4,629 nucleotides of DNA from a virus (taxonomy: Duplodnaviria; Heunggongvirae; Uroviricota; Caudoviricetes): the IMG/VR virus record IMGVR_UViG_2671180979_000009; one strand, written 5' to 3'. The translations under genes were made by a program, and so were the position numbers. Under the pieces are notes generated by a model, which searched no databases, was not told the origin of the DNA, and saw nothing but the letters and a program-made list of their open reading frames with translations. Within the stretch, counting starts at the first letter, position 1. The number at the start of each line of letters is the position of its first letter. Shown here piece by piece: positions 2,675 through 3,816 of this stretch.

Positions 2675-2873
2675 GTAAAGAATGTTGTTTTTTGCGGCAT
2701 TAGCGAATCAGACGCTGATCAAACATACATTTACTCTAAAGAAACAGGTCGGATGCTGTGTAGTGACTGCGTGTTTGACATCATAAGATACAAGTATCTT
2801 GGATGTTCTGCCAGCATTAGCAATATAGGTGAAGTGTACGAAGGGAAAGATATAACTGATAGAGCAGAAAGTT

Positions 2874-2905
2874 GAAGCCCCAACTGCTGTAACAGTCAGG
2901 GCTTC
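2874..2905 (-). other. strand-asymmetric stem-loop, more stable as a minus-strand RNA; possible terminator of a leftward (antisense) transcript
   Basis: On the + strand: gaagccc / ca-actg-ctgtaa-cagt-ca / gggcttc, where the two ca/ca positions are C-A mismatches. In the minus-strand transcript those positions become G-U wobbles, giving a continuous ~13 bp stem (GAAGCCCUGACUG / CAGUUGGGGCUUC) with a 6-nt loop, followed by AACUUUCUGCUCU. Confidence 0.35.
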
Positions 2906-2937
2906 GTTATCAACAAATCGGCTTAGGAAATATTGAC

Positions 2938-3816
2938 ATGAAAAGTATAGCAAAGGCACAAAACGATTTCACTATCTTCAAATTCGGCGACAGTGAAATC
3001 CGCGTCATCAACAAGTGCGGTGAGCCGTAGTTTGTAGCTAAAGATGTTTGTGATGCTTTAGCTTTGACTAACTCACGCAAGGCGCTTACTGCACTTGATG
3101 ACGATGAAAAGGGAGTAACTTTAAGTTACACCCTTGGTGGTGAGCAGAATCTAAGCATTGTGAGCGAATCAGGTATGTATACATTGGTTCTGCGCTGCCG
3201 CGATGCAGTCAATAAAGGTTCAGTCCCGCACAAATTCCGCAAGTGGGTAACAGCAGAAGTTCTGCCTTCAATTCGCAAACATGGCGAGTATGTAAAAGGA
3301 AAGAAAACCACTGTTGAGGAAAGAACACCGCTACGCGATGCAGTAAACATGCTGGTAGGAAAGAAAGGACTTCGCAATGACGATGCATACAATATGGTTC
3401 ATCAGCGTTTTGGTATTGACAGCATTGATGAGCTTTCAATTGAACAAATCCCGCTTGCCGTAGAGTACATCCACAGGGTAGTGCTTGAAGGTGAATTCAT
3501 TGGCAAACAAGAGAAGAGCACCAACGAGCTTTCCGCAAAAGAAGCAAACAGCCTTGTATGGCTATGGGATTATGCCAACCGCTCACAGGCATTATTCCGC
3601 GAACTGTATCCGGCGCTAAAACAAATTCAATCGAACTATTCCGGCAGATGCTACGACTACGGTCATGAGTTCTCGTATGTTATTGGAATGGCGAGAGACG
3701 TTTTAATTAATCACACACGAGATGTTGATATCAATGAGCCAGACGGACCAACGAATCTTTCCGCATGGATGAGACTTAAGAATAAAGAATTACCTCCTTC
3801 ACCGCATCACTACTAA
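2938..3816 (+). pseudogene. ant: Bro-N domain antirepressor (Ant-like) gene interrupted by an in-frame amber codon at 3028-3030
   Basis: ATG 2938 preceded by AGGAAA (2925-2930). Translation [59 protein letters not shown]...[16 protein letters not shown] is a Bro-N antirepressor N-terminus, but TAG replaces the Trp of the conserved GEPWFVAKDV motif (TGG to TAG, one transition). The same frame then stays open to TAA 3814-3816; the track ORF 3064-3816 starts at TTG with no Shine-Dalgarno. Confidence 0.7.

Follow-up and report, generated by a model that had tools for sequence, protein, structure and literature searches.

Does the DNA in front of the antirepressor gene (ant) of a lambda-like Escherichia coli prophage encode a counterpart of sar, the small antisense RNA that represses ant in Salmonella phage P22? 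The question is raised by a stretch of 4,629 nucleotides (nt) of tailed-phage DNA (IMG/VR record IMGVR_UViG_2671180979_000009; hereafter the window, to whose full length all coordinates refer), in which the initial annotation saw a possible sar-like antisense RNA facing the ribosome-binding site of ant. How sar represses ant in P22 has been set out in reviews and in the epsilon34 genome paper, and P22 is the only phage for which this repression is known (Liao et al. 1987, Wu et al. 1987 and Schaefer & McClure 1997, as cited in later papers). The proposal is supported by a match to the Rfam family RF00262 (sar), by a covariance model of our own, by alignment to P22 and by the Arc- and Ant-type neighbours of the locus. 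Taken together, these results make it very probable that the minus strand at 2868-2937 is an orthologue of P22 sar, lying within a P22-type immI cassette and giving rise to an ant-repressing RNA of about 70 nt. For transcription, the termination point and translational repression at this locus we infer the P22 behaviour from homology.

Identity and extent of the predicted RNA

The RF00262 model matched the minus strand of the window at 2870-2936 with a score of 66.7 bits (E 9e-13). The match is complete (model positions 1-68 of 68) and exceeds the gathering score of 43, whereas the plus-strand hairpin alone scored 17.8 bits against the same model. Our own covariance model, made from six sar sequences in the P22 register, matched 2868-2937 of the minus strand with 62.1 bits. 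The family was taken to be characterized by a full-length model match, two hairpins, a position cis-antisense to the ant leader, a Psar promoter of its own, a transcript of 68-69 nt and repression of ant.

The ends of the RNA were predicted from an alignment of the window with P22, epsilon34 and four relatives (alignment A1). In the P22 record NC_002371 (in the coordinates of locus L004) sar occupies 701-770 and Psar 777-805, both on the minus strand, the sar terminator is annotated at 701-738, the ant ATG is at 771, and the arc stop codon (700-702) lies at the 3' end of sar. Transferred to the window by the alignment, these features fall at 2868-2937 (sar), 2944-2972 (Psar) and 2938 (ATG of ant), with offsets that equal those of P22 to the base. 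Measured from the ATG, the RNA, its terminator and its promoter thus lie where they do in the annotated P22 and epsilon34 records. The ant start used here agrees with the annotation in three relatives (L001, L148 and L149).

The predicted RNA is cis-antisense to the ant leader, to which its complementarity is complete by construction. Its 5' G is the complement of C2937, so that the 5' end abuts the ATG, and its 3' end is predicted to fall within the AACUUU tail, at the stop codon of the upstream open reading frame (ORF; stop at 2873-2875). These ends agree with the initial annotation, which had put a transcript of about 70 nt between a start near 2937 and an end near 2862-2870. It had also described the RNA as complementary to both the Shine-Dalgarno sequence and the start codon of ant. 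The former part stands, for the predicted RNA covers AGGAA (2925-2929) and the spacer up to the base before the ATG; the ATG itself is not necessarily covered, because the RNA is predicted to start at 2937.

Secondary structure and predicted terminator

Folding of the minus strand at 2862-2937 (76 nt), which had been suggested as a check, yielded two stable hairpins with a free energy of -29.8 kcal/mol (z-score -6.3); none of 200 shuffled sequences folded as well. The plus strand of the same segment gave -20.5 kcal/mol and a z-score of -2.4. For the sar RNA the minimum free energy (MFE) structure and the centroid structure of the minus strand were identical, and the fold has the same two-hairpin shape as that of P22 sar (-29.8 versus -29.5 kcal/mol).

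The promoter-distal hairpin (2874-2905) had been predicted to pair better as minus-strand RNA, and this was confirmed by the energies: on the minus strand it forms 14 unbroken pairs, three of them G-U, with -22.0 kcal/mol, whereas on the plus strand it contains three C-A/A-C mismatches and reaches -16.0 kcal/mol. Its stem is the same as that of the annotated sar terminator of P22, from which one loop base differs. The U-tract that follows had been regarded as weak. The tail AACUUU is indeed as described, but it is common to the annotated P22 sar terminator, and consequently it is no evidence against termination. Similarly, a simple promoter and terminator scan overlooked not only this hairpin but also P22's own annotated Psar and sar terminator; because the annotated P22 terminator is missed too, the failure of the scan to list the one in the window does not argue against it.

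The Psar candidate and the start of ant

The minus-strand pair GTGAAA/17 nt/TATACT named in the initial annotation was recovered by the scan at 2972-2944, where it coincides with the Psar position expected from P22. This candidate promoter sits within ant codons 3-12, at +6 to +34 from the ATG, as does the annotated Psar of P22. Promoter-like hexamer pairs occur in this region at the frequency expected by chance (three found, 3.7 expected in shuffled sequences), and for this reason the hexamer match was rejected as statistical evidence by itself. The extended -10 element TGCTATACT (also given as TGNTATACT) occurs once in the window, against an expectation of 0.06.

The same element was compared among 30 distinct ant N-terminal segments. 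TAnnnT (-12 to -7) is kept in 29 of them and TG (-15/-14) in 25. The fourth codon of ant encodes Ile, Val or Leu (ATA, GTA or TTA) in 29 of the 30, and the fifth, mostly NCA, encodes Ala, Ser or Pro. Since the -10 and the TG are kept while the encoded residues vary, the constraint acts on the nucleotides and not on the protein.

Homologues and covariation

When the hairpin was used as a search pattern, 16 genome loci and 120 viral contigs were retrieved. Among these, sar was confirmed by Rfam in genomes of Pectobacterium, Entomohabitans, Tatumella and Lonsdalea and in several phages, and our own covariance model found 95 matches, 79 of them distinct, the window included. When the 79 distinct sequences were aligned with the covariance model, 98.3% of the cells were standard pairs, compared with 34-44% when the partners were slid. 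In the 5' stem all six modelled pairs show changes on both sides (compensatory changes) with 95% of the cells paired, and the observed covariation was reached by no shuffle. In an alignment made with MAFFT (A2) the 5' arms of the two stem types were offset by one column, and the covariance-model alignment was used in its place.

The hairpin pattern, being palindromic, also drew unrelated hairpins from Hymenobacter, Streptomyces, Mucilaginibacter and Maribacter, which were set aside; the four such loci sampled (L010, L012, L016 and L020) had no Rfam sar match. Copies from Xenorhabdus stayed under the Rfam gathering score and scored 40-46 bits with our own model; they are probably distant members of the family.

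Three further observations were made on the collected loci. The 14-bp terminator stem hardly varies, even at its G-U pairs (L001-L146), whereas the loop, the end of the upstream gene, the ant leader and the Ant N-terminus reassort around it. This suggests that the stem also marks a boundary of module exchange, with the ascertainment bias that the loci had been fished with the hairpin. In some contigs a further and weaker sar-like match lies at a distance of about 1-3 kb. In Xenorhabdus hominickii (L008) the two matches score 42 and 46 bits (4973-5046 and 6028-6096), and in two viral contigs the second match has about 30 bits (L052, 4268-4339; L134, 8365-8433); these pairs may be duplicated antisense modules. 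Finally, in Klebsiella phage ST101-KPC2phi6.1 (L145) a sar-like match of 39 bits (1469-1537, minus strand) lies inside a coding sequence for a 543-amino acid (aa) 'hypothetical protein' (866-2497), an annotation that probably spans an arc/ant-type junction.

Proposed mechanism and alternative explanations

In the model that we favour, RNA polymerase would start at the extended -10 promoter Psar, inside the first ant codons, and transcribe leftward, and the RNA of about 70 nt would end at the hairpin 2874-2905. Rightward transcription from a promoter on the arc side would produce an arc-(orf)-ant mRNA. With its perfect complementarity to the ant leader and with the anti-Shine-Dalgarno sequence UUCCU displayed in loop I, sar would pair with this mRNA and occlude the ribosome-binding site, whereby synthesis of Ant would be blocked. 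We infer that the hairpin terminates the leftward RNA only and that rightward arc-ant transcription would read through it, because the three G-U pairs become mismatches on the plus strand and no T-run is present 3' of the hairpin on that strand, where the sequence reads GTTATCAACAAA.

It could be argued that the hairpin is a rho-independent or bidirectional terminator, or an attenuator, of the rightward arc/small-ORF transcript and that the leftward hexamers are there by chance. The hairpin does begin at the stop codon of the upstream ORF, and hexamer pairs are, as mentioned, no commoner than in shuffled sequences. The mismatches and the lack of a T-run led us to reject the hairpin as a plus-strand terminator, and termination at this point would silence ant, which has no promoter of its own downstream. 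Such a role also does not accord with the conservation of the extended -10 at the nucleotide level across 30 ant types, with the covariation of the 5' stem or with the full-length Rfam match, and we regard it as extremely improbable. Hardly better, at very low probability, is the explanation that the invariant hairpin owes its conservation mainly to a role as the joint where arc-side and ant-side modules recombine, and not to an RNA function. The many combinations in which flanks and loop reassort around the stem speak for a joint, but the covarying 5' stem, the conserved promoter and the strand asymmetry would be left unexplained, and a joint is compatible with sar function and so is not a true alternative.

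Several points weigh against a functional sar in the window. The invariance of the terminator helix is partly by construction, since the hairpin was the pattern with which the loci were fished, and alignment A4 was fitted to the structure of the model, which favours pairing. A gapless alignment places the 5' stem of the window one register off that of P22, and whether changes count as compensatory depends on where a 1-nt gap is placed. The cassette, moreover, is decaying in the window, with an amber codon in ant and a frameshift in the small ORF before it. In a transcriptome and ribosome footprint study of E. coli O157:H7 EDL933 (PMC5331693), 'sar' (67 nt, minus strand) appears in the Rfam-derived list of known noncoding RNAs, and transcriptome reads and footprint reads for it numbered 0 each in the data of that study; the coordinates are those of an older EDL933 assembly, and the listed element is presumably the EDL933 copy of the present locus.

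An intact ant is one of the characteristics of the immI region. In the window the Ant domains are present, and codon 31 is TAG (3028-3030) where relatives have TGG (Trp31), a single-base difference from O157 strain LSU61. An 81-nt probe over the amber codon matched 392 complete E. coli genomes (at least 80% coverage) with a best identity of 98.8%, that is, with one mismatch, and one record, whose coverage is unlisted, had at least 99% identity. Judged from these matches, the amber mutation looks private and recent. The 114-nt stretch that comprises sar and Psar (2862-2975), in contrast, is 100% identical to copies beside an intact ant, including that of Sakai prophage Sp6, and 306 E. coli records are at least 99% identical over it.

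These data bear on the possibility that the element is a silent relic, a sar homologue no longer transcribed or without effect, next to an ant pseudogene in a decaying prophage. The amber codon, the frameshifted neighbour, the absence of reads for the Rfam-listed EDL933 sar in one study and the chimeric K'-'L rearrangement of the window (see below) would all fit a relic. On the other hand, the sar/Psar stretch is identical to copies beside an intact ant in Sp6 and others, the amber codon is apparently recent (none of the 392 genomes matches the probe without a mismatch), none of the promoter and stem positions has decayed, and a single lysogen RNA-seq data set says nothing on infection or induction. 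We therefore consider a relic quite unlikely and prefer a conserved, potentially active sar. Because of the amber codon, the cis target of the RNA in the window is dead, and any present role would be in trans, on identical ant leaders elsewhere. It is a rather unlikely, speculative extension of this that an orphan sar outlives its ant as a trans-acting immunity RNA against the ant genes of co-resident or superinfecting phages, the 5' stem types being specificity groups and the terminator hairpin the joint at which arc and ant modules are exchanged between P22-like and lambda-like phages.

The immI cassette and its surroundings

The coordinates of the features of the cassette are in Table 1.

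Table 1. Predicted elements of the sar locus and of the surrounding immI-type cassette in the window
Feature	Position	Strand	Basis and remarks
Predicted sar antisense RNA, 70 nt	2868-2937	-	RF00262; own model R1; ends from alignment to P22 sar
sar stem-loop I	2909-2937	-	MFE fold and covariation; 7-bp stem GUCAAUA/UGUUGAU, 15-nt loop with anti-Shine-Dalgarno UUCCU
sar stem-loop II, terminator hairpin	2874-2905	-	14 bp with three G-U pairs, 4-nt loop
Terminator tail AACUUU	2868-2873	-	Alignment A1 and P22 sequence; six bases as in P22
Psar, candidate promoter	2944-2972	-	Scan; -35 GTGAAA 2967-2972, 17-nt spacer, TG 2951-2952, -10 TATACT 2944-2949
ant translation initiation region, predicted sar target	2925-2940	+	Shine-Dalgarno AGGAA 2925-2929, ATG 2938-2940
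ant, antirepressor gene	2938-3816	+	Pfam Bro-N and P22_AR_C (8e-20 and 1e-29 on the repaired protein); amber codon 3028-3030
Small CxxC...CxxC ORF between arc and ant, frameshifted	2671-2875	+	Stop TGA 2873-2875 overlaps the foot of the sar terminator
arc-like repressor gene, 50 aa, first of the rightward operon	2522-2674	+	Pfam Arc PF03869, 3e-11; Arc family in the annotation of L001
Divergent control region	2413-2521		Inverted repeats 2416-2449 and 2475-2497; candidate rightward promoter TTGACT 2462-2467/17 nt/TACGTT
mnt-like repressor gene, 84 aa	2158-2412	-	Pfam Arc PF03869, 7e-9; position and size as P22 mnt
Left-edge hairpin with T-run, terminator-like	2150-2167	+	Scan
Right-edge hairpin followed by TTTTAT, after the ant stop, terminator-like	3835-3852	+	Listed by the scan on the minus strand; plus-strand T-run read from the sequence

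The window contains lambda-type tail genes: M (71-412), L (421-1110), a chimeric ORF (1116-2141) and K (3870-4607). An immI-type insert of 1.7 kb lies between the second L-derived segment and K, while in relatives without the cassette L and K are adjacent. The insert is bracketed by terminator-like hairpins within a late operon, which is the classic layout of a moron. The moron concept is taken from the epsilon34 genome paper, in which 'ant moron' is the name for the P22 immI-type region. The insert is a moron, a P22-type immI cassette lying between L and K in a lambda-like E. coli prophage. Such a placement recurs but is in the minority: of the fetched loci, 16 carry the cassette beside lambda-type L/K and 78 beside a P22-type tailspike gene.

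The region between the mnt- and arc-like genes contains operator-like palindromes, TACACCGTGATA...TATCACAGTGTA at 2416-2449 and TCACAGTGATACGTTTGTGA within 2475-2497, which have the motif CACnGTGATA in common. A P22-type immI region would have overlapping Pant/Pmnt promoters with Arc and Mnt operators here; in the window the promoter and operators are putative, and no sequence similarity to the P22 Oarc/Omnt operators was found. The small ORF between arc and ant had no Pfam match. P22-like viral contigs (for example L116, L044 and L124) have it intact (67 aa, MSKECCFCGISESD...), and it is interrupted by a +1 frameshift in a T-run (at about 2688-2693) in the window and in all relatives with lambda context (L001, L036, L072, L098 and L125).

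In the chimeric ORF the N-terminal ~196 aa of K are joined in frame to the C-terminal 146 aa of L, with the junction at 1703/1704. Positions 1-1702 are 98.8% identical to cassette-less M-L-K prophages and positions 1704-4629 are 99.2% identical to 'L-immI-K prophages. Neither the 5,426 complete E. coli genomes searched nor the fetched loci contained the K'-'L junction; it is the product either of a rare illegitimate recombination between two prophages or of a chimeric assembly.

Relation to known systems

Among functionally comparable RNAs, IS10 RNA-OUT and lambda OOP are short cis-antisense RNAs that have their promoter inside or beyond the target gene and end at a terminator hairpin. RNA-OUT covers the ribosome-binding site of its target, and OOP works through RNase III cleavage, with the 3' end of cII as its target. 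The predicted sar of the window has no sequence relationship to either. The c4 RNA of P1 and P7 is not known to be made from a convergent promoter opposite its target, and it differs from the sar of the window in sequence and family. According to a review, c4 is a small antisense RNA that pairs around the ribosome-binding region and so prevents synthesis of the antirepressor, and it is listed there as trans-acting.

The window element belongs to an already known family and is in effect an already listed locus. The RefSeq (PGAP) annotation leaves sar unmarked in Sakai and EDL933. Literature searches for sar or immI in Stx/O157 prophages returned general mentions of Ant only, and searches by 'RF00262' and by the Sakai and EDL933 locus tags returned nothing relevant. 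As a discovery the finding carries little weight; it is correct but ordinary. The comparative data cleanly back the model of 1987, with a covarying 5' stem, a promoter maintained at the nucleotide level within a coding region and a strand-specific terminator containing G-U pairs.

The closest functional precedent is P22 sar itself. Common to both are a 70-nt cis-antisense RNA that ends at the ant ATG, the two hairpins with the anti-Shine-Dalgarno sequence in loop I, the 14-bp terminator stem, the AACUUU tail, the offset of Psar inside ant with TGcTATACT and the embedding of an mnt-arc-ant cassette in a late operon. The two differ in stem I (GUCAAUA/UGUUGAU in the window, GUUGGU/ACUGAC in P22) and in the -35 hexamer (GTGAAA versus GTGTTA). 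Unlike P22, the window has an extra, frameshifted ORF between arc and ant, and its ant is inactivated by the amber codon. The hosts also differ: the window belongs to a lambda-like E. coli prophage of siphovirus type and has its cassette between L and K, whereas that of P22 precedes the tailspike gene.

The same sar family was recognized, by Rfam or by our own model, in Salmonella phage epsilon34 and in the other Lederbergvirus phages Emek, 611R6, Kapi1, CUS-3 and N7. As in the window, arc and ant of Emek and 611R6 are separated by an additional ORF whose end is at the hairpin, and Emek has a 5' stem of the window type. Unlike the prophage of the window, all these phages are podoviruses, and their cassettes precede the tailspike gene.

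In prophage Sp6 of E. coli O157:H7 Sakai, besides the identical sar/Psar stretch, the same cassette is found between L and K. The Sakai and EDL933 copies score the same as the window with our own model, and they differ from it by an intact ant and by the lack of the K'-'L duplication. When the immI cassette enters lambda-like prophages of enterohaemorrhagic E. coli, such as Sakai Sp6 and its EDL933 counterpart, it thus brings along the antisense control of the antirepressor known from P22. If the RNA is active there, it would add a layer of control to the cross-induction that antirepressors drive between the numerous prophages of O157 strains.
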